Assembly: GCA_036000865.1 (NCBI GenBank)
Contig: DASYUV010000002.1
Span: 4,431-68,430, forward strand
Direction: 5' to 3'
Source: Candidatus Binatia bacterium
Lineage (GTDB): Bacteria > Desulfobacterota > Binatia > UBA9968
Length of the DNA: 64,000 nt
Shown here: positions 2,012 through 55,012 of the stretch, piece after piece
Layout: every line of letters begins with the position of its first letter
Numbering within the stretch: position 1 is the first letter of the stretch
Program-made: the position numbers and the translations under genes
The notes under the pieces: model-generated
Seen by the model: the letters and a program-made list of their open reading frames with translations, nothing else
Told to the model about the DNA's origin: nothing
Database searches by the model: none

Positions 2012-2896
2012 TCAGCTGATTTTGCGGCGTAAATAAGCGCTTAGATAATCGACGATCGTGACCAGGATATAGATCGCAAGAATCAACGTCAGTAACTGAT
2101 TTTCCAGGAACAAGCTGATAGCGATATGTATTCTCTGGCCGAGGCCGCCCGCGCCCACCAGACCGAGCACCGCGGCGACGCGGATATTCACTTCCCAGCG
2201 ATAAAGCGTGTAGGAAACAAATTGCGGCAGCACTTGAGGCAGGATGCTGTAAAATAGGATCTGTAGGCGGCTCGCGCCGGTGCTCTGCAGCGATTCGATG
2301 GGTTGCGAGTCCACGTCCTCCAAAACTTCGCCGAAGAGCTTGCCAAGCACACCGCCGGTGTGAACCCCAAGCGCCAGCACGCCTGGAAACGGCCCCAGAC
2401 CGACGAGAAACACGAAGATCAACGCCCAAACCATTTCCGGAATCGTGCGCAGGATATTGAGCACGCTCTTAGCGGCCAGATACGGGATCATGCGTGCCGA
2501 TCTCTTCCATCCCTGCCTGGGCTCCATTTCGTAGAGCAAGCCTGAATAGATCAGATTGCGCGAGGCGAAAAATACAATCGGCAGCGCAACGGCCACGGCC
2601 AGCAATGTCCCCATGAACGAGATGGCGAAGGTTTCGATCGTGCCCCTCCATGCCTCTCGCAAGACATTCGGCGAAAAATCGGGCGGCACGAGCTTCGCGA
2701 GGTAAATCAAAATCTGTCCCAAACCGTCGCGACTGAAGAGCTGCGAAAGATCGATCTCCGCGCCGCGATAGCTCCAGACCAGAAACGCGACAACGGCGAC
2801 GAGGAGAAACAGGTTCTTGGCCGTCGACTTCTCACGGGACGCCCCAGCTCGCGATGGGATCATCTCGCAACTATTTTTTGCTGCCGTTGGGCTCAT
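2012..2896 (-). CDS. phnE: Phosphonate ABC transporter permease PhnE (copy 2)
   Basis: Polytopic membrane protein with the PhnE-type conserved loop (LQSTGASRLQILFYSILPQVLPQFVSYTLYRWEVNIR). ATGA start/stop overlap with the upstream phnE copy. Confidence 0.8.
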   Translation of the reverse strand: MSPTAAKNSCEMIPSRAGASREKSTAKNLFLLVAVVAFLVWSYRGAEIDLSQLFSRDGLGQILIYLAKLVPPDFSPNVLREAWRGTIETFAISFMGTLLAVAVALPIVFFASRNLIYSGLLYEMEPRQGWKRSARMIPYLAAKSVLNILRTIPEMVWALIFVFLVGLGPFPGVLALGVHTGGVLGKLFGEVLEDVDSQPIESLQSTGASRLQILFYSILPQVLPQFVSYTLYRWEVNIRVAAVLGLVGAGGLGQRIHIAISLFLENQLLTLILAIYILVTIVDYLSAYLRRKIS

Positions 2897-3747
2897 AGCA
2901 TGGCCCGTACCTTGGCGCTCAAGTAATCCACCGCCGCCACCATCACGAAGAGAATGATCAAGATTGTCAGCACTTCGTTAAAATTAAACATTCGCATCGA
3001 GATCTCGATCTGTTGGCCCAGGCCGCCCGCCCCAACCAACCCCAAGATCGCCGAGGCGCGCACCGCGCATTCCCAACGGTACAAGGTATAGGAAACGAAA
3101 TTGGGCAGCGCCTGGGGGAACCAGCCGTAGAAAAAAATCTGTAACTTGTTAGCACCGGTCGCCTGCAAAGCTTCCAGCGGGCGGAAATTCACCGACTCGA
3201 AAATTTCCGAATAGACTTTGCCGAGCATCCCGCCGTAGGCTACGCCGATGGCCAAGACCCCAGGAAAGGGCCCCAACCCCACCGCGCGCACGAACATGAA
3301 CGCCCAGACAAACTCGGGAATGCAGCGGAAAAGACTCAAGAGACCCCGGGCGAAGAGATAAACGGCGTAGCGTATACCGCGGCGCACGGGTCTACCTTGC
3401 AACTCGGCGTCGTTAAGGATGCCGCGAACAGCGAGAGTATGAGTTCCCAAAAGCCCGAGCGGAAAGCCGATCAGAACGGCGATCACCGTTCCCCAAAACG
3501 AGATCTGAATCGTTTCCAGCGCCGGTCGAAGCATGAGCGAGAGAAAGTTCCATGAAGTATCGGGTGGAAACATGCCGGTGAGGAACTTCCACAAAGAATC
3601 CCGGCCCCTTGGCTCGAAGAAAACCGCAGGATCGATCGCTGCCCTTTTCCAGCTGTCGATGAATGCGAGGACAAAGAACGCGGTAAAAAGATAGGGGAAT
3701 AGAGATTTAGCTGACTCACGGGTAAGCGATGGGTTGGACTCTTTCAC
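2893..3747 (-). CDS. phnE: Phosphonate ABC transporter permease PhnE (copy 1)
   Basis: Paralog of the downstream permease (LQATGANKLQIFFYGWFPQALPNFVSYTLYRWECAVR). Its position directly after phnC is typical of phnCDEE operons. Confidence 0.8.
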   Translation of the reverse strand: MKESNPSLTRESAKSLFPYLFTAFFVLAFIDSWKRAAIDPAVFFEPRGRDSLWKFLTGMFPPDTSWNFLSLMLRPALETIQISFWGTVIAVLIGFPLGLLGTHTLAVRGILNDAELQGRPVRRGIRYAVYLFARGLLSLFRCIPEFVWAFMFVRAVGLGPFPGVLAIGVAYGGMLGKVYSEIFESVNFRPLEALQATGANKLQIFFYGWFPQALPNFVSYTLYRWECAVRASAILGLVGAGGLGQQIEISMRMFNFNEVLTILIILFVMVAAVDYLSAKVRAML

Positions 3748-4531
3748 TCGTGGCCTCGGTCACGGCATGATCGCGAAAATTACCGCTGTACAGGTCGTCT
3801 AACATATCGTCGCTGATTTTGTCAGGGGACGAATCGAAAACGGCCTTTCCCTGTTTTACACCGACAACCCGGGGAAAATAGGCGAGGGCAAGATCGACGC
3901 TATGGAGACTGACGAGCAGGGTCTTCTGTGTAGTTCGGCTAATCTCGATGAGCAGGCGAACGATGCTTGACGCTAACGTCGGATCGACGGACGACACCGG
4001 CTCATCAGCGAGGATTACCTCAGGGTCTTGCACCAAAACCCGTGCGATCGCGACCCGCTGCTGCTGGCCGCCTGACAGTTCATCGGTCCTGTCAAATAGC
4101 TTTTCCGCGATTTCCACTCGGCTCAGCGCTTGATAGGCCAGGTCCACGTCAGCGGGCTTAGCAAGTGAAAACAACGATCCAAAGGTCGGCCAGCGTCCCA
4201 ACTGCCCCGCCAGCACGTTGTGAATCACGCGTAGGCGAGAAACCAGATTGTGCTGTTGGTAGACGCTGCCGATCCGTCGCCGCGCCTGGCGAAGACGCTG
4301 GCCGTGAAGGGTTTCAACATCTTCACCGTCGATCCAGAGCGTTCCCGAGGTCGGTCTCAGCGTGCAATTGAGCAGACGAAACAACGTCGTCTTGCCCGCC
4401 CCGCTGGGTCCGATCAGGGCGACTCGTTCGCCTCGATCGACGTTCAATGTGATGCCATCGAGCGCTACCTGCTGGCGTCCGAAGAGCTTGCGGACATTCT
4501 CAAGGCGATACTGAAACTCGGAGTAGCTCAC
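3716..4531 (-). CDS. phnC: Phosphonate ABC transporter ATP-binding protein PhnC
   Basis: Walker A GPSGAGKTT, signature LSGGQQQRVAIARVL, Walker B ILADEP. The ORF-track start is a TTG at 4585 that overlaps phnD by 55 nt. A GTG at 4531 overlaps the phnD stop by 1 nt and is preferred. Confidence 0.85.
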   Translation of the reverse strand: MSYSEFQYRLENVRKLFGRQQVALDGITLNVDRGERVALIGPSGAGKTTLFRLLNCTLRPTSGTLWIDGEDVETLHGQRLRQARRRIGSVYQQHNLVSRLRVIHNVLAGQLGRWPTFGSLFSLAKPADVDLAYQALSRVEIAEKLFDRTDELSGGQQQRVAIARVLVQDPEVILADEPVSSVDPTLASSIVRLLIEISRTTQKTLLVSLHSVDLALAYFPRVVGVKQGKAVFDSSPDKISDDMLDDLYSGNFRDHAVTEATSERVQPIAYP

Positions 4532-5391
4532 TAGTTTAATTTGAGAAGCCCGGCGGCGATCGCTGCTTCTTCTATGCCTTTCCAATCTTCGTCTTTGGCG
4601 GCGATGTAACCCTTGGTGCGGTGCAGATCGAGGAGCTTCTTATCGTCAGGCTTATTATAGTCGAGCTTTAAGAATGCCTTGACGATCTTGTCGACGGTCG
4701 CCTTATCGACGCCCGCCCTGATGGTCCAAACGTAATCGACATAGGCGGGAGTCGTCCAAAAAATCGAAACCTTATTGGTGTCCACTTTCTTGGTTTCAAC
4801 CAGTTTGTCCCAAACCAGAAAGTTGAGCGCTCCCGCGTCCACCTGTCCCGCCTCGACCCAGGCGGCCGTCGCGTCGTGAGCGCCACTGAAGCTAAACTTC
4901 GAGAAGTCCTTCTCTGGATTGATCCCGCCTTTGAGCAAAAAATAACGCGGCATGAGATGTCCCGAGGTCGAACTGACGCTGCCGAAGGCGAAGGTCTTCC
5001 CCTTGAGATCCTTCAGATCCTTGATGCCGGTTTCCTTGCGGGTGATGAAGTAACTCTTAAACTGGGCGTCTTCCTTGCGCATGATAATTCTCCGCGCGCC
5101 TTTGGCCTGTTTTGCCGCCTGAACCGAAGTTAGGCCGCCGTACCACACCATCTCTAACCGGTTGGCCGCCAGTCCCTCCACGGTCGCCGCATAGTCAACG
5201 ACGGGAGTGAACTTGACTGGAATGCCGATTTCCTTGCTCAGATAGTCGGCAAATGGACTGTAGATCCGCAACATCTCCTGAGGATTTTCGTCGGGAATCG
5301 CCGATATTCTGAATTCATTGATCGTTTGAGCCGACGCCCAGCCGGCCAGCCAGAAAAGCAGCGCGCTTACCAACAATGCCAGTTTGTTCAT
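4531..5391 (-). CDS. phnD: Phosphonate ABC transporter periplasmic substrate-binding protein PhnD
   Basis: PhnD-like sequence (FRISAIPDENPQEMLRIYSPFADYLSKEIGIPVKF, SGHLMPRYFLL). ATG 5391 has GGAGG 7 nt upstream and yields the signal peptide MNKLALLVSALLFWLAGWASA. Confidence 0.85.
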   Translation of the reverse strand: MNKLALLVSALLFWLAGWASAQTINEFRISAIPDENPQEMLRIYSPFADYLSKEIGIPVKFTPVVDYAATVEGLAANRLEMVWYGGLTSVQAAKQAKGARRIIMRKEDAQFKSYFITRKETGIKDLKDLKGKTFAFGSVSSTSGHLMPRYFLLKGGINPEKDFSKFSFSGAHDATAAWVEAGQVDAGALNFLVWDKLVETKKVDTNKVSIFWTTPAYVDYVWTIRAGVDKATVDKIVKAFLKLDYNKPDDKKLLDLHRTKGYIAAKDEDWKGIEEAAIAAGLLKLN

Positions 5392-5573
5392 TGGAGACCT
5401 CCGTGGGTGCATTTGGACACTACACCTATATATCAAATCTATCGATAAGGTAAATCGCTTTTGCCTATCGCATAGCTCAAATCCTTTACTTCTGAGTGGT
5501 GCAGCGCCGATGGATTTCTAGGATTTCGACCCGAGAGCGGTCCCAGGACAGGCGCGGAAAATACCAGGCCATA

Positions 5574-6047
5574 CTACGAATGGTTTTTCAGAAATTCCAC
5601 AACCTCGTCCGGATGTTCTGCGGCTTTCTTCACCGTCGGCCAGTGCTTGATCACATTGCCCTTCGAATCGATCACCACGGTAGAGCGAATCGTGCCCTCG
5701 ACCTCTTTGCCGTACATCATTTTTTTGCCAAAGGCGCCGTATTTCTTCATGACTTCGGCCTTCGGGTCGGATAGGAGCATAAACGGCAATTTGTATTTGC
5801 CGGCGAACTTGTTGTGCGATTCGATGCTGTCTTTGCTTACGCCCAATACAACCGCATCGCTCTTTTTTAAGGACGCACCCAGGTCGCGAAAGCCGCATGC
5901 CTCCTTGGTGCAACCGGGCGTGTCGTCTTTAGGATAGAAGTAAAGCACGACCGTCTTACCCTTGTAGTCTTCGAGCGAATGAGTTTTGCCGTCGTTACCC
6001 TCCAAGTTGAATGCCGGAGCCTTCTGGCCTTCGACGAGACTCTTCAT
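5574..6047 (-). CDS. bcp: Thiol peroxidase Bcp / PrxQ (Cys form)
   Basis: Motif FYPKDDTPGCTKEACGFRD (peroxidatic and resolving Cys). ATG 6047 is preceded by AGAGG. Confidence 0.9.
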   Translation of the reverse strand: MKSLVEGQKAPAFNLEGNDGKTHSLEDYKGKTVVLYFYPKDDTPGCTKEACGFRDLGASLKKSDAVVLGVSKDSIESHNKFAGKYKLPFMLLSDPKAEVMKKYGAFGKKMMYGKEVEGTIRSTVVIDSKGNVIKHWPTVKKAAEHPDEVVEFLKNHS

Positions 6048-6084: not shown

Positions 6085-6366
6085 CTATTCGCTCACCTTG
6101 ACGCCGCGCCAAAAGGCGATGTAATTTTTAATCTGTTTAGCGGCCTCCTTCGGTTCCGGGTAATACCAGGCAGCATCTTGATTCACTTTTTCGTCGACTT
6201 GAACGTGATAGTAGCTGGCAAGCCCTTTCCAGGGGCAAGTGCTATGTTTTTCGCTCGTGCGAAAATATTCTTGCTTGACCGACTCCGGCGGGAAGTAATG
6301 ATTTCCCTCAACGACGATCGTCTTGTCCGATTCCGCCAACAGCGTATTTTCCCAAGTGGCTTTCAT
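6085..6366 (-). CDS. DUF427 domain protein
   Basis: 93 aa with the DUF427 pattern (VVEGNHYFPPESV, STCPWKGLASYY, AAWYYPEP). Confidence 0.8.
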   Translation of the reverse strand: MKATWENTLLAESDKTIVVEGNHYFPPESVKQEYFRTSEKHSTCPWKGLASYYHVQVDEKVNQDAAWYYPEPKEAAKQIKNYIAFWRGVKVSE

Positions 6367-6392: not shown

Positions 6393-6596
6393 AACTACCC
6401 ACAGCAAGCTGCGAGGTATCGACAGTCCTTTGTGACAATTTTCCTCAAAGTTGTCACCCCCGAATGTTTTTATCGGGGGTCCAGTCAGAGTTCGCCTGTG
6501 GTGAGCCCCGTCGAATCACCGCTATATAGAAGCATGCGGGAATGACGGACTGTAAGAGGACTACAAATCGCCTAACGCAGCAAAGATTAAACTGAC
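6393..6596 (+). repeat. Composite structured intergenic repeat, family A, copy 1
   Basis: Modules in order: aactaccc-ACAGCAAGCTGCG hairpin, GTCACCCCCGAATG..ATCGGGGGTCCAGTC hairpin, ..GCATGCGGGAATGACGG, then ..acgcagcaa..attaaact. The same modules recur in the same order and orientation at 18403, 38705 and 50011. This copy carries an extra insert (gtggtgagccccgtcgaatcacc). Confidence 0.8.
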
Positions 6597-7958
6597 ACGC
6601 AGCGAAACTTTGCAAACACATAAGGATAATGAGCTTGATACCAGTTGCGAAAGCTCGAGCGTAGCAAATCCGTGCCGGTCGCCCACGACCCGCCTTTCAA
6701 AACAAAATGTTTGCTGTCAAAAAAATCCTGCGAGTAATCGGGGTAGCTTTTCATGTAAGGTGAAAACCCCGGCAGCGGCGCGAATTCAGTGTCCGTCAGT
6801 TCCCAGCCATTACCGACCAGCTCGGCGACGCCCCAGCGGCTGTTTCCAGCCGGATTGGCGCCGACGGGCAGCGGGGACCAACGGTTGAAATCGAAATTGC
6901 CATGGCATTTTTCCGGAGTGGCGTCCCCCCACGGATACGCAGACTTCCGTCCGTCAGGCCCGTAAAACGCCGCCCGATGAAACTCGGCTTCCGTCGGCAG
7001 CCGCTTCCCGCGCCAGCCAGCGTAAGCGCGCGCTTCGGCGAGGCACACATATACCGGCCAACTCGACACACCCGCCAGCGGCAAAACGTCGAACATCGCT
7101 CGATACAACCAATCATCATCCCGCCTGGTCCAGCAAGTTGGATGCGTTTTATCTTCGAGCATCTTCCAGCGCCAATCTTCCGGTCGCCAATAGCGCTCAT
7201 CGTCGTAAGCTCCCGAATCCACGAAGTCGAAAAATTCTCCGTTGGTTACGGGTAGACAGTCGATATTGAAAGACGGCACGTCGACGACCTGCTCACCAAA
7301 CTCGTTGTCCCAACCAAAAAGGCTATCTGTAAATTTGGCGCCCAAACGCGCTTTCCCGGCAGGGATCGCAATTTGTCGTTGATGCGCGCGGGATTGAAAG
7401 GAATAGCGCGGTAACGAGTCGGGGCGCCGTTTCTTGTCGAGCGACAACTGCTGCATCGTATAGAGCAAGGTTTCCTGGTGCATGTACTCATGCTCGAGTG
7501 CCATATGAAAAACTCGCCCGCGCTGTGCCATCACGTCGGTTGAACCGCGGTGCGCCATCGCTCAAGGGAATCCAAAATCGCGCCGCGCACGTTGTCACGA
7601 TAGGCCACGACGTCGCCCAACCTCGGCCATTCCTCGGGGACTTCGGGATGCCAATGACATTCGCCGGTATCGACACCCGGGTCGATGCCGCGGCAAAAAA
7701 GATCGTCGAAATAGGGATTGAACGACTTCCGTTTAAGTATAGCGCCACAAGTCTGATTCCACGAAAACGCCGGCAGATGACCGACGTAGAAGATAAGACG
7801 TAGAAGATAAATGGATGGCGCCAAACAATTGGCTTGGACAACATTGCGGTCGTCGGAACGATCGCGAAAATCTCATCGGTTCGCGCCCACGCCGCGATAA
7901 ACCTGTCTCGCAGAAGCTCGATTTTGCTCGGTTCAAAGCGTCTCAACGGCAATGCCAT
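6587..7958 (-). pseudogene. EgtB/OvoA-like sulfoxide synthase (DinB_2 + FGE-sulfatase domains), frame-disrupted twice
   Basis: Three successive frame segments (7958-~7800, ~7800-~7560, 7558-6587) together give about 455 aa. Motifs include RHPFIFYVGHLPAFSWNQ, ALEHEYMHQETLLY and a C-terminal SUMF1-type domain (GNGWELT, LKGGSWAT). The frame is broken by a 14-bp tandem duplication and by a second 1-nt shift near 7535-7565. Confidence 0.75.
7783..7810 (-). repeat. 14-bp perfect tandem duplication inside the EgtB-like gene
   Basis: gacgtagaagataa occurs twice back to back (7783-7796 and 7797-7810). Removing one copy restores ...RHPFIFYVGHLPAFSWNQTCGAIL... Confidence 0.95.
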
Positions 7959-8055: not shown

Positions 8056-8967
8056 CTACCCCTGTTTTAGGAATTCTCGAAAAGCTTGGGCGATGGGATG
8101 TAAGGGGCGGCGGGTGTGGTGCACCTCGTAGAACTCGCGTTGCATGGTCAAGCCGCGAATCGGGATTTCGACGAGATTTCCGGCCGTGAGCTCGCGCCTG
8201 ATGGAAATGCGCGACAAAATAGACATGCCGTATCCGGCTATTATCGCTTCCTTGATGGCTTCGGTGCTACCGAGCTCCATGGAAATGTTGAGCAGCTCAT
8301 TTGAGGATTGCTTGTTCTTGCTCAAAAGGCGTCGCAAGGAATCCAAAGTCCCCGAGCCGCGCTCCCTTGATATAAATTTTTCGGTTCGCAGATCGGCAAG
8401 CTGGACAAATTGTCGCCGGGTCCAAGCATGATCCTTCGGCACCACCAAGATCATCTCGTCATCCCATATCTTCTCGAAGGCAAGTCTGGCGTCTTCCGCT
8501 TTGAAACCGACAAACCCCAGTTCAACTTTGCCATCCAGCAGGTCGTCTATGATTCCCGCCGAATCACCGATTCTCAGTATCGGGCGGATGGCGGGATACT
8601 TCTCCGTAAAAGCGCCGAGTCTTTGAGGTAAAAGATATTCCCCAGGCACGTTGCTGCCGCCGACCCATAGCTCACCGCTCAGCGTGCCGTGAAATAGCTC
8701 GACCGCTGCGACGGTTTCTCGTTTAAACGCCAGAAGATTTTTCGCCCGTTCTGATAGAAGCTCACCCAGAGGCGTCAAGCTGACTCGGCCGCGGATGCGG
8801 TAAAGAAGCTTGCCGCCAACCAACTTCTCCAACTCCTGGACATGAGCGCTGACCGTGGGTTGGCGTAGTGACAGCAGCTCCGCCGCCTGAGAGAAACTCC
8901 GCAACTCGGCGACCCAGTAGAAAATTTCTAATTTGTGCAGGTCGAGATCGGCTTTTATTTTGCCCAT
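8056..8967 (-). CDS. LysR family transcriptional regulator
   Basis: N-terminal winged HTH (FSQAAELLSLRQPTVSAHVQELE) plus a LysR substrate-binding domain. The protein has no Cys. It lies immediately downstream of the Sec-Bcp gene. Confidence 0.9.
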   Translation of the reverse strand: MGKIKADLDLHKLEIFYWVAELRSFSQAAELLSLRQPTVSAHVQELEKLVGGKLLYRIRGRVSLTPLGELLSERAKNLLAFKRETVAAVELFHGTLSGELWVGGSNVPGEYLLPQRLGAFTEKYPAIRPILRIGDSAGIIDDLLDGKVELGFVGFKAEDARLAFEKIWDDEMILVVPKDHAWTRRQFVQLADLRTEKFISRERGSGTLDSLRRLLSKNKQSSNELLNISMELGSTEAIKEAIIAGYGMSILSRISIRRELTAGNLVEIPIRGLTMQREFYEVHHTRRPLHPIAQAFREFLKQG

Positions 8968-8973
8968 CAGAAG

Positions 8974-8997
8974 TGGTGAGTGGGTGGGCTTCGAACC
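8974..8997 (-). other. tRNA 3'-end-like fragment (T-loop + acceptor strand + CCA), not a complete tRNA
   Basis: The minus strand reads GGTTCGAAGCCCACCCACTCACCA. No matching T-stem 5' strand, anticodon arm, D arm or 5' acceptor strand can be paired upstream. Confidence 0.3.
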
Positions 8998-9080
8998 TTG
9001 ACTTTAAGCGGTAAAAAAACCAATGGCGCCGCCGGAGCGTGGCTAGCCCTGCCACGCTGCCTGACGACGCCATTGAACGA

Positions 9081-9548
9081 TTACTTCTTCAAAAATTCCA
9101 AAACTTCGGCCGGATGCGCTTCCGGATTGGTGACGGGAATCCAATGTTTCTTGATCGTACCATCAGGCCCGATCAAGGCCGTGGAGCGGATCGGTCCTTC
9201 GACCGTTTCGCCTTGGGCGTTCTGACGCGGTCCCCAGGCACCATATATTTTCATGACCCCTACTTGCGGGTCAGACAAGAGTACAAACGGTAAGTTAAAC
9301 TTGGCGACGAACTGGTTGTGCGAATCGATATTGTCCCGGCTCACACCTACAACCACGGTATTGGATTGCGTTACGTTTTCAATAGCGTCGCGGAACCCGC
9401 ACGCTTCCTTGGTTCAACCAGGTGTGTCGTCCTTCGGATAAAACCAGAGTATTACGCTTTTCCCGGCGTAGTCGGATAGCGAATGCTTCTTGCCATCGCT
9501 CCCCTCCAAAGTAAATGCCGGGGCCTTTTGACCTTCAAGACCTGCCAT
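9081..9548 (-). CDS. bcp: Selenocysteine-containing Bcp/PrxQ peroxiredoxin (in-frame UGA at 9416-9414, codon 45)
   Basis: One frame runs from ATG 9548 to the stop at 9081 with a single TGA. The translation [54 protein letters not shown] aligns residue-for-residue with the Cys paralog (..[19 protein letters not shown]). The UGA replaces the peroxidatic Cys codon. The ORF track shows only the 3' part (9081..9356). Confidence 0.8.
9384..9405 (-). promoter_or_regulatory. Candidate bacterial SECIS hairpin of the Sec-Bcp mRNA
   Basis: The mRNA, starting 8 nt after the UGA, reads AGCG-U-GCGG-GUU-CCGC-GA-CGCU. This is a stem with a bulged U and a G/U apical loop about 17-20 nt downstream of the UGA. 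Confidence 0.5.
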
Positions 9549-9707
9549 TGCGCCACCTCCGTCATGTTTAATGTGACCTTTTGTTTATCACACCCGCAAA
9601 CGATCAATCAAATCTAACTTTGCCTGGTCGCAGGATTTAGCTCTGGACGAACGCCTTGCGCTGGTTTGGGCCACCGTTTGGTGCGCTTTTGATATTCGAA
9701 GATTGCT

Positions 9708-9752
9708 GATCGAGGATAGAAGATCGCGATCCTCAATCGTCCATCCTCGATC
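9708..9752. repeat. GA-rich/CT-rich palindromic repeat, family C, copy 1 (closed hairpin)
   Basis: gatcgaggatagaagatcgc / gcgatcctcaatcgtccatcctcgatc form an imperfect long hairpin. It uses the same GAGGAT/ATCCTC word set as the copies at 27574, 28105 and 29086. Confidence 0.7.
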
Positions 9753-52408: not shown

Positions 52409-53695
52409 ATGGAACTGGAACTGTTCGATTACTCGATCGACGAGCTTCGATGGGGAGAGCGCACCGCCCTCACCGGCAAGTCTTTATCCGTCCATGCGCC
52501 CGATCTCCGGGAATTGCTGAAAGACTTATCCCACGGCATTCACGTCGATTACGAGATCGCGCGTCCCGGCGAGTCGAAACGCGTCGTGCACGTTTTGGAT
52601 ACGGTGCTGCCGATCGCAAAGCTATCCGGCCACGCTACAACCTTCCCGGGGTTTGACGGTCCCGCGCAACTCGTTGGTACTGGGAAAACAATTCGTATCA
52701 GAAATCTTCTTGTGACCGTTGCCGGGCGTTTCCCCAACGTTGAAGCGCTGACCCCGATCGAAAAGCCGCGGGAAGGCATCCTCGACATGGGGGGCGTCGG
52801 CGCGCCCTTTTCCTATGGCTCGGACCGTTTCCATCTCATCCTTTCGCTCACACCCGATTCATCGGTCTCCAACACCGCCTTCGACCAGTCGCTTAGAAAT
52901 ATGGCCCTCCGCTGTGCGCGCTATCTGGCGCAGGTGGAGAAGACGAACATCGAACCCGAAAAGCAGGTCATTTCATTGAAGCCGGTCAGCGAACACTTGC
53001 CCAGAGTGGTGCTGATCTATCAGGTGCAGAGCCAGCTCTGCTGCGCCCGGACCTTCTATTACGCTGAAGAAGTCTCGAAAACTTTGCCGACTTTCGTGCA
53101 CCCCGCCGAATTCTTTGACGGCGCCGTGGTTAGCGGCAACTATAAAAGCGAGCGGAAGATCCCGACCTCCCAGCACTGCGCCAACCCTTTCATCGCGGAG
53201 CTGCTTGAACGCCACGGCAAAACCATAAACTTCCTCGGCGTCATTCTATCGCGCGGCTACAACGACAGTTTCGAACAGAAAAAAAAGATGGGTCTATGGG
53301 CGGCGCGCTTGGCGCGCAATCTCGGCGCCGAGGGAGCCGTCGCAATCATGGAAGGGACCGGCAATGGTACCGTCGATTTCATGCAAACGGTGAAGGCCTG
53401 CGAAGACGAAGGTATCAAGACCGTTGCCGTGCTGCATGAATCCAACGGCCCCAAAGGTTACGAGCGACCCCTCGTTGACCATCCCAAAGAGGCCGATGGC
53501 ATGATCAGCCGGGGCAACGTATCGGAAAGAATATATATTCCACCGCTCACGACGGTGATCGGCGGGTCTGAGATCGATCTCCACTTAAAGGCAAGTCAGG
53601 ATCCACGCCTGCCATTCCTCTTTGACCCGACGATCTTTTTCGGCTCTTACGGCAAAATGGGCAGCAGCGGCTTTCGTGCCGAGTATGAGAATTAA
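52409..53695 (+). CDS. GrdE/GrdI-like component-B subunit of the glycine/sarcosine/betaine reductase family
   Basis: 428 aa. Blocks EIARPGESKRVVHVLDTV, FFDGAVVSGNYKS..., NPFIAELLERHGKTINFLGVILS and EDEGIKTV resemble GrdE-family proproteins (PF09338), as far as I recall those sequences. The gene is followed 12 nt later by the selenoprotein-B gene. Confidence 0.8.
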   Translation: MELELFDYSIDELRWGERTALTGKSLSVHAPDLRELLKDLSHGIHVDYEIARPGESKRVVHVLDTVLPIAKLSGHATTFPGFDGPAQLVGTGKTIRIRNLLVTVAGRFPNVEALTPIEKPREGILDMGGVGAPFSYGSDRFHLILSLTPDSSVSNTAFDQSLRNMALRCARYLAQVEKTNIEPEKQVISLKPVSEHLPRVVLIYQVQSQLCCARTFYYAEEVSKTLPTFVHPAEFFDGAVVSGNYKSERKIPTSQHCANPFIAELLERHGKTINFLGVILSRGYNDSFEQKKKMGLWAARLARNLGAEGAVAIMEGTGNGTVDFMQTVKACEDEGIKTVAVLHESNGPKGYERPLVDHPKEADGMISRGNVSERIYIPPLTTVIGGSEIDLHLKASQDPRLPFLFDPTIFFGSYGKMGSSGFRAEYEN

Positions 53696-53707: not shown

Positions 53708-55012
53708 ATGATCAAAGTGCTCCACTATTTGAACCAGTTTTTTGCGGGTATCGGCGGTGAAGACAAGGCCGGCCACGAAGTGCTTTTCCTGCCCCACGCA
53801 GTGGGCGTGGGGGCGGTGATCGAAAATGCAGTCAAAGTTCATGCCGTAGAATACGCAACGATCCTCTGCGGCGACAACTATTTTCACGAAGAGGAAGAAA
53901 AAGCTTTGCAAGCGATTCGCGCATCGATCGATCAATTTCAACCTGACCTTTTCCTTGCCGGCCCAGCCTTCAACGCCGGCAGATACGGTCTCGCCTGCGC
54001 CAAGCTGTGCAGTTGGGTGCAGGATAACTGGCGGATACCCGCAATCACCGGAATGCACGAAGGCAATCCGGGAATCCGAGAGGTCGGCCGGCGGCTGTTC
54101 GTTATTCAAACCGGCGCCTCCGCCGCGTCGATGCCAGAAACCTTAAAGCGTTTTTCGCTGCTCATCGAAAGATTGATATCGGGAGACACAAAGGCCATCG
54201 AAGATTTCCGCGCCGAGCACTGTTTACCGATCCCGAGGCGCTTCACCATTAAAACTGACACCCCGGATTATGTCCGTGCCGTGGATCTCTTGCTTGCCAA
54301 GCTCAACGGCCAACCGTACGAAAGCGAGATCCCGCGCATCGAAGCGCAACAGGATCCGATTCCCAATTTGACCGGCAGGTTAAAAGACGCCACCGTCGCG
54401 CTGGTCACTGAAGGCGGTTTGGTGCCGAAAGGAAACCCCGATCATTTGGAAAGTTCTCGAGGCACCAGATATTTCAAATACGCGATCGGCGATCGTGACG
54501 ATCTGAAGCGCGGTGAATTCCAAGCGATGCACACCGGGTACGACACCTCCACGGTCGATGAAGATCCCGATCGTATCGTCCCCCTCGACGCCATGCGTGT
54601 GCTGGAGAAAGTCGAACGGTTCAAAAAGCTCCACGATCACTATTTCGTCACCACCGGCACCGGGGCCATGCCGAGCAAGATGGCGGAGATCGGCGCCGGA
54701 ATCGCTGACGAGCTCGCCGGCTCCGGCATCAACGCGGTCATTTTAACCGCCACGTGAGGAACCGGTACTCGTAGCGGCGCTACGATCGCCAAAGAAATCG
54801 AGAAGAGGGGAATTCCCGTGGTGCTAATCACCTGTCTCGCCAACGTCGCGTCCCAAGTTGGAATCGGCAGGATCATGGCAGGAAATAAGTTTCACTATCC
54901 GGTCGGACAGCCCCAGCTGCCCCCCGCAGAAGAGCTGCGCTGGCGCGTCGCCCTCATCGAAAAGGCCCTCGTCTCGCTGGAAACAGCGGTCGAAGAGCCC
55001 AAGATTTTCTAA
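53708..55012 (+). CDS. Selenoprotein B of the glycine/sarcosine/betaine/D-proline reductase family (GrdB/GrdH-like), UGA-Sec at codon 350 (54755-54757)
   Basis: The 349-aa ORF ending at TGA 54757 and the 64-aa ORF 54818..55012 are in the same frame. Read-through gives 434 aa with a GrdB-type N-terminus MIKVLHYLNQFFAGIGGEDKAG and the Sec region AVILTAT-U-GTGTRSGATIAKEIEKRGIPVV. Length and Sec position match GrdB-type proteins. Confidence 0.85.
54764..54790 (+). promoter_or_regulatory. Candidate bacterial SECIS hairpin of the selenoprotein-B mRNA
   Basis: A perfect 6-bp stem CGUAGC-GGC-GCUACG (54770-54784) starts 12 nt after the UGA. It can be extended by GGU/GCC pairing across a 3x3 internal loop. 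Confidence 0.5.

Follow-up and report, generated by a model that had tools for sequence, protein, structure and literature searches.

The question raised by this locus is whether a short open reading frame (ORF) resembling the remnant of a broken peroxiredoxin gene is instead the downstream part of an intact gene for a selenoprotein, cut short in annotation at an in-frame TGA. The locus lies in a 64,000-nucleotide stretch of contig DASYUV010000002.1 (assembly GCA_036000865.1, positions 4,431 to 68,430 of the forward strand) from a Candidatus Binatia bacterium; this whole stretch is referred to here as the window, and all coordinates are positions within it. The program-made ORF list represents the locus solely by a 91-amino-acid (aa) ORF, 9081..9356 on the minus strand. 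An initial annotation, made from the letters alone, had pointed out that the same frame continues upstream to an ATG at 9548 through a single TGA, and had proposed that this TGA specifies selenocysteine (Sec). Translation of 9548..9081 indeed reveals one internal stop only, the TGA at codon 45, in a frame that is otherwise open from start to stop. As developed below, comparison of this frame with its relatives indicates that it is very probably a genuine gene, termed here Sec-bcp, for a Sec-containing peroxiredoxin of the Bcp/PrxQ (atypical 2-Cys) type. The coordinates of this and all other features are collected in Table 1.

The place that the UGA occupies in the protein is the first consideration. 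With Cys substituted at codon 45, the Sec-bcp product aligns with the Cys-containing Bcp encoded 3 kb away at 6047..5574 (61% identity over 151 residues, E 1e-70), and the UGA falls on Cys46 of this twin, in agreement with the earlier proposal that it sits on the codon of the peroxidatic Cys. The position is that of the peroxidatic Cys in the motif P-x3-T-x2-C, read here as P38-KDD-T42-PG-U45, and the active-site Arg of peroxiredoxins is also present, the R of IRST aligning with ERST of the BCP structure 5enu. The protein has a single Cys, C50, which lies five residues past U45 at the resolving position of the E. coli BCP type and which is kept, as U-TKEA-C, among the Binatia orthologues. The domain assignment is to PF00578 (124 bits against a cut-off of 26, residues 6-134), with a further match to Redoxin at 77 bits, and the nearest solved structures are BCP proteins, namely 3drn, 5enu, 3ixr and the Xanthomonas BCP series.

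The UGA is also a conserved feature of the gene. Related genome loci were collected by scanning one genome per GTDB species with the search pattern WFYPKDDT, which yielded 78 loci (denoted below by L numbers). At the aligned codon, where the initial annotation had suggested that Cys and Sec be counted, TGA is found in 73 of the 78 loci, and TGC or TGT is limited to Cys orthologues (e.g. L008, L037, L038, L063 and L073) and to adjacent Cys paralogs. The TGA-bearing loci belong to Binatia, Planctomycetota, Acidobacteriota (Pyrinomonadaceae and Chloracidobacterium), Vulcanimicrobiota, Dormibacterota, Gemmatimonadota, Latescibacterota, Polyangia and others, such that the TGA form spans Binatia and at least seven other phyla. 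Within the population of the window itself, an identical TGA and downstream hairpin recur in three further independent JGI assemblies (3300036860, 3300036863 and 3300036864), whose contigs were found through an exact match to the LysR protein of the window and are at least 99.96% identical to it; gene callers cut Sec-bcp into 44-aa and 91-aa products in four independent assemblies. Beyond genomes, at least 120 metagenome contigs carry the exact 12-residue Sec-site pattern, and among the matches listed the frame continues as the C-terminal half of Bcp in 118 of 120; the two exceptions, L114 and L137, have a second stop a few codons past the TGA.

Both halves of the gene are under purifying selection. 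In comparisons of the window gene with 21 Binatia orthologues, the ratio of nonsynonymous to synonymous substitution rates (dN/dS) lies between 0.01 and 0.13 before the UGA (codons 1-44) and between 0.03 and 0.15 after it (codons 46-155); dS is about 1 or saturated in 19 of the 21 comparisons and 0.13-0.20 for the two closest relatives, L001 and L002. Furthermore, TGA serves as the ordinary stop of 19 of the 54 genes in the window, and the genetic code is therefore standard and the recoding specific to the site.

Not all relatives carry Sec at this codon. Among the best 120 homologues in a collection of 5.8 billion proteins, all are Cys forms or rare R/W variants and none is recorded with Sec (U); the rare relatives P0001 and P0008 have CGA (Arg) or TGG (Trp) at the codon. 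Inside the Binatia orthologue group itself, L008:4614-5078 is a Cys version, with its LysR gene upstream rather than downstream. Together, the Cys versions and the CGA and TGG variants suggest conversion between Sec and Cys, in either direction, and occasional loss. In two long-read metagenome-assembled genomes (MAGs) of the 'MFD' series, L031:10001-10467 and L034:10001-10466, Sec-bcp carries frameshifts 3' of the TGA, which may be indel errors or decay. The Trp that precedes FYPKDDTPG was considered as a marker of the Sec form, as it is present in 73 of 73 TGA loci and replaced by Tyr in Cys forms, but the search pattern WFYPKDDT had itself demanded this residue. In an unbiased metagenome scan the position is W in 47, Y in 40 and F in 33 of the matches listed, and the marker was rejected.

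A further line of evidence comes from the RNA downstream of the UGA. Folding of the 61 nt 3' of the TGA gives a hairpin, AGCGUGCGG-GUU-CCGC-G-ACGCU, in whose 5' arm the resolving-Cys codon TGC (9401-9399) is embedded. The initial annotation had described a stem-loop that begins 8 nt after the UGA and has a GUU apical loop and a bulged U; the start and the loop are as described, but the unpaired base is a G, at 9389 on the 3' side of the stem. In an alignment of 20 Binatia, Latescibacterota and Gemmatimonadota sequences, 160 of 160 pair cells are standard, GC-to-AU double changes occur at two pairs (5 cells), and shifting the partners by 1-3 columns lowers pairing to 19-62%. Other phyla have hairpins of their own. 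That of the Acidobacteriota is different and lies a few bases farther on, with 98.6% of positions paired and a switch between CG and UA in 7 of 18 sequences. Hairpins at the same place as in Binatia can be read from the sequences of Vulcanimicrobiota (GCGUCGC-AGUUUC-GCGACGC, with a GC/GU/AU series at one pair) and of the Dormibacterota type (with GC, AU, CG and GU at one pair).

The hairpin is, moreover, a property of the Sec genes. The mean minimum free energy (MFE) of 36-nt windows over 164 non-redundant Sec-bcp genes has its global minimum, -11.2 kcal/mol, in windows starting +3 to +9 from the UGA, as compared with means of -6.9 to -7.6 kcal/mol for the same windows in 20 Cys homologues. 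In the Cys twin of the window, whose TKEACGFRD peptide is identical, the lower stem is lost through synonymous differences. Pairing throughout the clade, compensatory changes and an MFE minimum found in Sec but not Cys forms all favour the earlier suggestion of a SECIS-like element (SECIS, selenocysteine insertion sequence), and we take the hairpin, with reservations, as a probable bacterial SECIS.

Two other genes in the window indicate that this genome decodes Sec: a second selenoprotein gene with a conserved TGA, and a LysR-family regulator that passes the NF040786 model. The former, at 53708..55012, belongs to the GrdB family ('selenoprotein B') and matches TIGR01918 at 372.8 bits (cut-off 65.45) across its in-frame TGA (residues 3-434, model positions 1-430 of 431). 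A hairpin lies 14 nt downstream of this UGA, and 118 of the best 120 database homologues of the protein have ..LTAT as their exact end, which coincides with this TGA. A U-x-x-C motif is tabulated for the GrdB/PrdB selenoprotein B family (PMC13188914); the context in the window protein is U-G-T-G..TRSG, which is without the Cys of the canonical motif, as is also the case in relatives P0193 and P0147. No PDB relative of the GrdB-like protein was found. A GrdE/GrdG-like gene (52409..53695) lies upstream of it, and no grdA was seen nearby. A scan of the window for reading through single TGA codons returned Sec-bcp and the GrdB-like gene as the only credible cases.

The regulator is encoded directly downstream of Sec-bcp and, as had been noted initially, its 8967..8056 product is devoid of Cys. 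The initial annotation had also pointed to a LysR subfamily linked with selenium metabolism. Such a subfamily, LysR_Se, is indeed published (PMC5322559), and the window protein is a probable member: in a profile search it passes NF040786, 'selenium metabolism-associated LysR', with 266.2 bits (cut-off 250; residues 8-302, model positions 1-296 of 298); the next-best LysR model falls far under its own cut-off. LysR_Se proteins have a subfamily-specific Pro in the effector domain and are found only in organisms that contain SelD, almost all of which decode Sec (PMC5322559).

A number of results weigh against reading Sec-bcp as a selenoprotein gene and must be set beside the evidence above. With C in place of U, its product scores under the equivalog cut-offs of both NF006960 (BCP; 113.4 vs 140) and NF053650 (PrxQ; 154.5 vs 260), and membership in BCP/PrxQ is therefore claimed at the level of subfamily or fold only. 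When the hairpin of the window is folded as a single sequence, its stability is unremarkable against dinucleotide shuffles (z = -0.42) and does not differ significantly from that of synonymous-codon resamples (p = 0.10). The mean z from synonymous-codon resampling is -1.0 over 71 Sec sequences (vs +0.3 over 16 Cys sequences). The compensatory changes appear to represent few events, and no Rfam family reaches its gathering score in the window; at E<=10, the region 8800-9700 returns only chance matches to miRNA and snoRNA families, which lie on the terminator that follows the gene. It is accordingly the comparison across sequences, and not the lone fold, that lifts the hairpin above chance. With respect to the decoding machinery, neither the 64-kb window nor 1.18 Mb of related loci yielded selA, selB, selC or selD, ARAGORN predicted a tRNA-Sec neither in the window nor in 37 related loci, and a tblastn search of the 1.18 Mb with an approximate E. 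coli SelD query gave no SelD match. Finally, the case for Sec-Bcp is built from DNA sequence.

How, then, do other explanations of the locus fare? The gene calls of 44 and 91 aa are what would be expected if the TGA were a nonsense mutation or a sequencing or assembly error and the locus a truncated bcp pseudogene beside a functional Cys copy, and this explanation gains something from the genuinely broken EgtB-like gene in the same window (described below) and from the frameshifts in the long-read MAG relatives L031 and L034. Yet the same TGA recurs in the three additional assemblies, the 73 genome loci and the 120 or more metagenome contigs, selection has been strong on both of its sides while synonymous sites have mostly become saturated, and a Sec-specific hairpin follows it, all of which leaves a pseudogene or an error with next to no probability. 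Conservation of the TGA, purifying selection and the standard code, taken together, rule out in our judgement a pseudogene, a sequencing error and a reassigned code alike. Reading of the UGA as Cys or Trp by near-cognate suppression, or its reassignment, to give an ordinary thiol or an inactive peroxiredoxin, would be compatible with the fact that the Sec machinery was not seen directly in the window or related loci and with the Arg and Trp codons of P0001 and P0008. This we regard as very improbable: TGA remains a normal stop for 19 of the 54 window genes, which speaks against reassignment; the UGA is placed exactly on the redox-active Cys, the classical position of exchange between Sec and Cys; a position-specific hairpin accompanies the UGA forms and not the Cys forms; the second selenoprotein gene of the window likewise carries a UGA where its family, GrdB, is known to have Sec; and a selenium-type LysR gene and a putative selenate transporter are adjacent.

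The remaining alternative concerns the hairpin, which might be a by-product of the peptide EACGFRDA and of GC-rich codons, with the recoding signal located elsewhere. Synonymous resamples already reach about -9 kcal/mol and the real sequence is better by only about 1 standard deviation, 6 of the 8 pairs are invariant within Binatia, and the register and loop of the hairpin vary between phyla. However, the Cys homologues that carry TKEACGFRD do not form a comparably stable fold (-6.9 to -7.6 vs -11.2 kcal/mol), double changes preserve pairs in several clades, and the hairpin is retained where the peptide differs (EACSFRD, EASQFRD, IEAQGFRD). We thus give the by-product explanation very little credit, and Sec insertion at codon 45 of an intact gene, directed by the downstream hairpin, stands as the preferred account.

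On this account, the biology of Sec-Bcp can be sketched by analogy with established Sec decoding and BCP/PrxQ chemistry. UGA codon 45 would be decoded as Sec during translation by the SelB.GTP.Sec-tRNASec complex, with SelB brought in by the small hairpin at 9405..9384, which lies within the coding sequence 8 nt past the UGA. In the enzyme, the U45 selenolate would attack the peroxide and be converted to selenenic acid, which would in turn condense with C50 to form an intramolecular U45-C50 selenenylsulfide, and thioredoxin would then reduce this bond. Sec-Bcp is like E. coli BCP and plant PrxQ, and the structures 3drn, 5enu, 3gkk and 5iiz, in fold, in length (about 155 aa) and in its active-site loop, and its resolving Cys, as in E. 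coli BCP, is at +5 from the peroxidatic residue. In BCP of the E. coli type, a resolving Cys at +5 implies an intramolecular bond that is reduced by thioredoxin. The window protein differs from BCP/PrxQ in that its peroxidatic residue is Sec, and its oxidized form would therefore be a selenenylsulfide.

Selenocysteine in a peroxiredoxin is in itself well known. The T-x-x-U peroxiredoxins of pfam00578 are a classical bacterial selenoprotein family, with 12 genes in a 2006 survey (PMC1794560); in the GOS metagenome, the Prx selenoprotein family has 253 members and is among the most abundant (PMC2398784), and it was listed again in 2026 (PMC13188914). In this light the initial description of a Sec-containing Bcp as uncommon does not hold, as TxxU peroxiredoxins are both known and abundant (PMC1794560, PMC2398784) and the form described here occurs in many phyla and on at least 120 metagenome contigs. 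Sec-Bcp has the features by which that family can be recognized in sequence: a PF00578 domain, Sec in place of the peroxidatic Cys in P-x3-T-x2-U (PKDDTPGU), many Cys homologues with exchange between Sec and Cys, and a hairpin in the coding region after the UGA. We therefore assign it to this known family. It departs from the published surveys in two respects. Those surveys did not separate Prx subfamilies, whereas the window gene is specifically of the BCP/PrxQ type with a resolving Cys at +5, and they drew on anaerobes and marine samples, whereas the present form is carried mainly by soil lineages (Binatia, Acidobacteriota, Vulcanimicrobiota and Dormibacterota). A biochemically characterized Sec-peroxiredoxin also exists, PrxU of Eubacterium acidaminophilum (Sohling et al. 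2001, as cited in PMC13188914). Like PrxU (NF040737), Sec-Bcp combines the thioredoxin fold of a peroxiredoxin with Sec as the peroxidatic residue; unlike PrxU, whose host is a strict anaerobe, it belongs to another Prx subfamily, with a score of 45.2 bits against the NF040737 cut-off of 270 (model length 233 residues). A literature search retrieved nothing on the selenoproteins of Binatia or on a 'peroxiredoxin Q/BCP' that contains Sec. Less familiar, then, are three aspects: the subtype (BCP/PrxQ, with a resolving Cys at +5), the range of soil phyla in which it occurs, and the fact that annotation overlooks it.

Table 1. Positions of Sec-bcp, its associated elements and other genes discussed in the text (window coordinates)
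Feature	Position	Strand	Description
Sec-bcp coding sequence	9548..9081	-	155 codons; ATG 9548-9546; stop TAA 9083-9081
In-frame UGA, probable Sec codon 45	9416-9414	-	Aligned with Cys46 of the Cys twin
bSECIS-like hairpin	9405..9384	-	9 bp; GUU loop 9396-9394; bulged G 9389; 8-nt spacer from UGA
Promoter-like element	9611..9584	-	TTGATT (9611-9606), 16 nt, GATAAA (9589-9584) preceded by TG; from alignment of 30 upstream regions
Shine-Dalgarno sequence	9560..9555	-	GGAGGT; ends 6 nt 5' of ATG; conserved in Binatia upstream alignment
Intrinsic terminator of Sec-bcp	9076..9013	-	Hairpin 9076-9020, then U7 9019-9013
LysR-family regulator, selenium-metabolism-associated subfamily	8967..8056	-	NF040786; HTH_1 and LysR_substrate domains; 0 Cys
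EgtB/OvoA/SenA-like sulfoxide-synthase pseudogene	7958..6587	-	Two lesions relative to intact L002 orthologue
DUF427 protein (PF04248)	6366..6085	-	116 bits (cut-off 22.1)
Cys-bcp, cysteine twin	6047..5574	-	C46 peroxidatic, C51 resolving; NF006960 140.2 bits (cut-off 140)
PhnCDE-type ABC transporter	5436..2012	-	Binding protein 4531..5436; ATPase 3716..4585; permeases 2893..3747 and 2012..2896
GrdB-family 'selenoprotein B' gene	53708..55012	+	434 codons; in-frame TGA 54755-54757

The neighbourhood of Sec-bcp adds a regulatory and metabolic setting. Every gene from 9548 down to 2012 is on the minus strand, and Binatia loci share the gene order Sec-bcp, LysR, EgtB-like, DUF427, Cys-bcp; in the related loci outside Binatia, the neighbours differ and the arrangement is not conserved. 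The LysR gene adjoins Sec-bcp in 29 of 31 Binatia loci (L001-L031), and in the other two, L016 and L029, the contigs end right after Sec-bcp. The DUF427 gene is kept between the EgtB-like gene and Cys-bcp, and Cys-bcp stays within 3-4 kb of Sec-bcp. In comparison with the 452-aa orthologue of L002, the EgtB-like gene of the window has suffered a 14-bp tandem duplication (TTATCTTCTACGTC x2) and a 1-bp deletion, and recurrence of these lesions in the three other assemblies identifies it as a real pseudogene in this population. Even the intact L002 protein scores under all curated cut-offs for this group (OvoA_Nterm 270 vs 400, EgtB 229 vs 360, SenA 225 vs 420).

Beyond Cys-bcp lies the PhnCDE-type transporter, whose binding protein matches TIGR04553, 'putative selenate ABC transporter', at 343.5 bits (cut-off 250), and whose genes likewise pass the PhnC and PhnE models. 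Since TIGR04553 is a 'hypothetical equivalog' model, selenate as the substrate is unproven. In the window and in L006, L007, L019 and L025 the transporter sits between Cys-bcp and genes of the Xdh/CODH family; L077 has a more divergent copy, and most other Binatia relatives have none. The initial annotation had portrayed the flanking genes as a small redox island. Its members Cys-Bcp, DUF427 and LysR are present, but the EgtB-like member is the frameshifted pseudogene, and with a putative selenate transporter adjoining the Cys twin the island appears to be as much one of selenium as of redox metabolism.

Sec-bcp also has candidate expression signals of its own. The promoter-like element listed in Table 1 is conserved 5' of Sec-bcp across Binatia loci, although it is unlisted by a consensus promoter scan, and we infer from this conservation only that it may be the Sec-bcp promoter. 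At the other end, the terminator hairpin is strong (MFE -44.3 kcal/mol, z = -5.6), and by virtue of this intrinsic terminator Sec-bcp is probably monocistronic. ARAGORN reported a tRNA-Leu(UAA) at 8973..9057 on the plus strand, which we discarded as a false positive on the terminator hairpin and its U7 tract: it has no Rfam tRNA match, the closest relative shows another anticodon there, and other relatives show no tRNA. No shared T-N11-A LysR box was evident upstream of Sec-bcp or Cys-bcp in the upstream alignment. Between Sec-bcp and a divergent gcvT-like gene, at about 9700..9745 on the minus strand, there is an imperfect palindrome, GAGGATGGACGATTGAGGATCGCGATCTTCTATCCTCGATC, which is common only to the two closest relatives, L001 and L002, and is not conserved across Binatia.

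A regulator of the LysR_Se type next to a pair of Sec and Cys isoenzyme genes recalls HrsM of Methanococcus, an archaeal member of the subfamily described as regulating Sec/Cys hydrogenase isogenes (Quitzke et al. 2018, as cited in PMC9312934). The window LysR, as assigned through its NF040786 score, resembles HrsM in sitting with such a pair. In contrast to the hydrogenase isogenes of the archaeon, the genes that it might control in this bacterium are those of two peroxiredoxins and a transporter. To our knowledge, selenium-dependent isoenzyme switching has so far been shown experimentally only for archaeal hydrogenases. The conserved arrangement of Sec-bcp, LysR_Se gene and Cys-bcp, which is also among the less familiar aspects of the locus, invites the idea of an HrsM-like switch and does not demonstrate it. 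As a tentative proposal, more doubtful than probable, the Binatia cluster could be the bacterial counterpart of the HrsM system, in which a LysR_Se-type regulator would sense selenium (perhaps as selenophosphate), switch between Sec-Bcp and its Cys twin and control the transporter, and in aerobic soil phyla few selenoproteins might be as widespread as the Bcp-type Sec-peroxiredoxins.

This find leaves the understanding of Sec decoding and of peroxiredoxin chemistry as it was; its significance lies in what annotation misses and in the system that the neighbouring genes may form. Soil and aquatic metagenomes commonly contain the Sec form, but the gene is systematically mis-annotated, and surveys of the selenoproteomes of Binatia, Acidobacteriota, Vulcanimicrobiota and Dormibacterota accordingly undercount it. 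Sec-bcp, the selenium-type LysR gene and Cys-bcp, with or without the selenate-type transporter, constitute a compact and testable model for selenium-dependent isoenzyme switching in bacteria. If such a switch does operate, it would allow Binatia to maintain their peroxide defence once selenium runs out.

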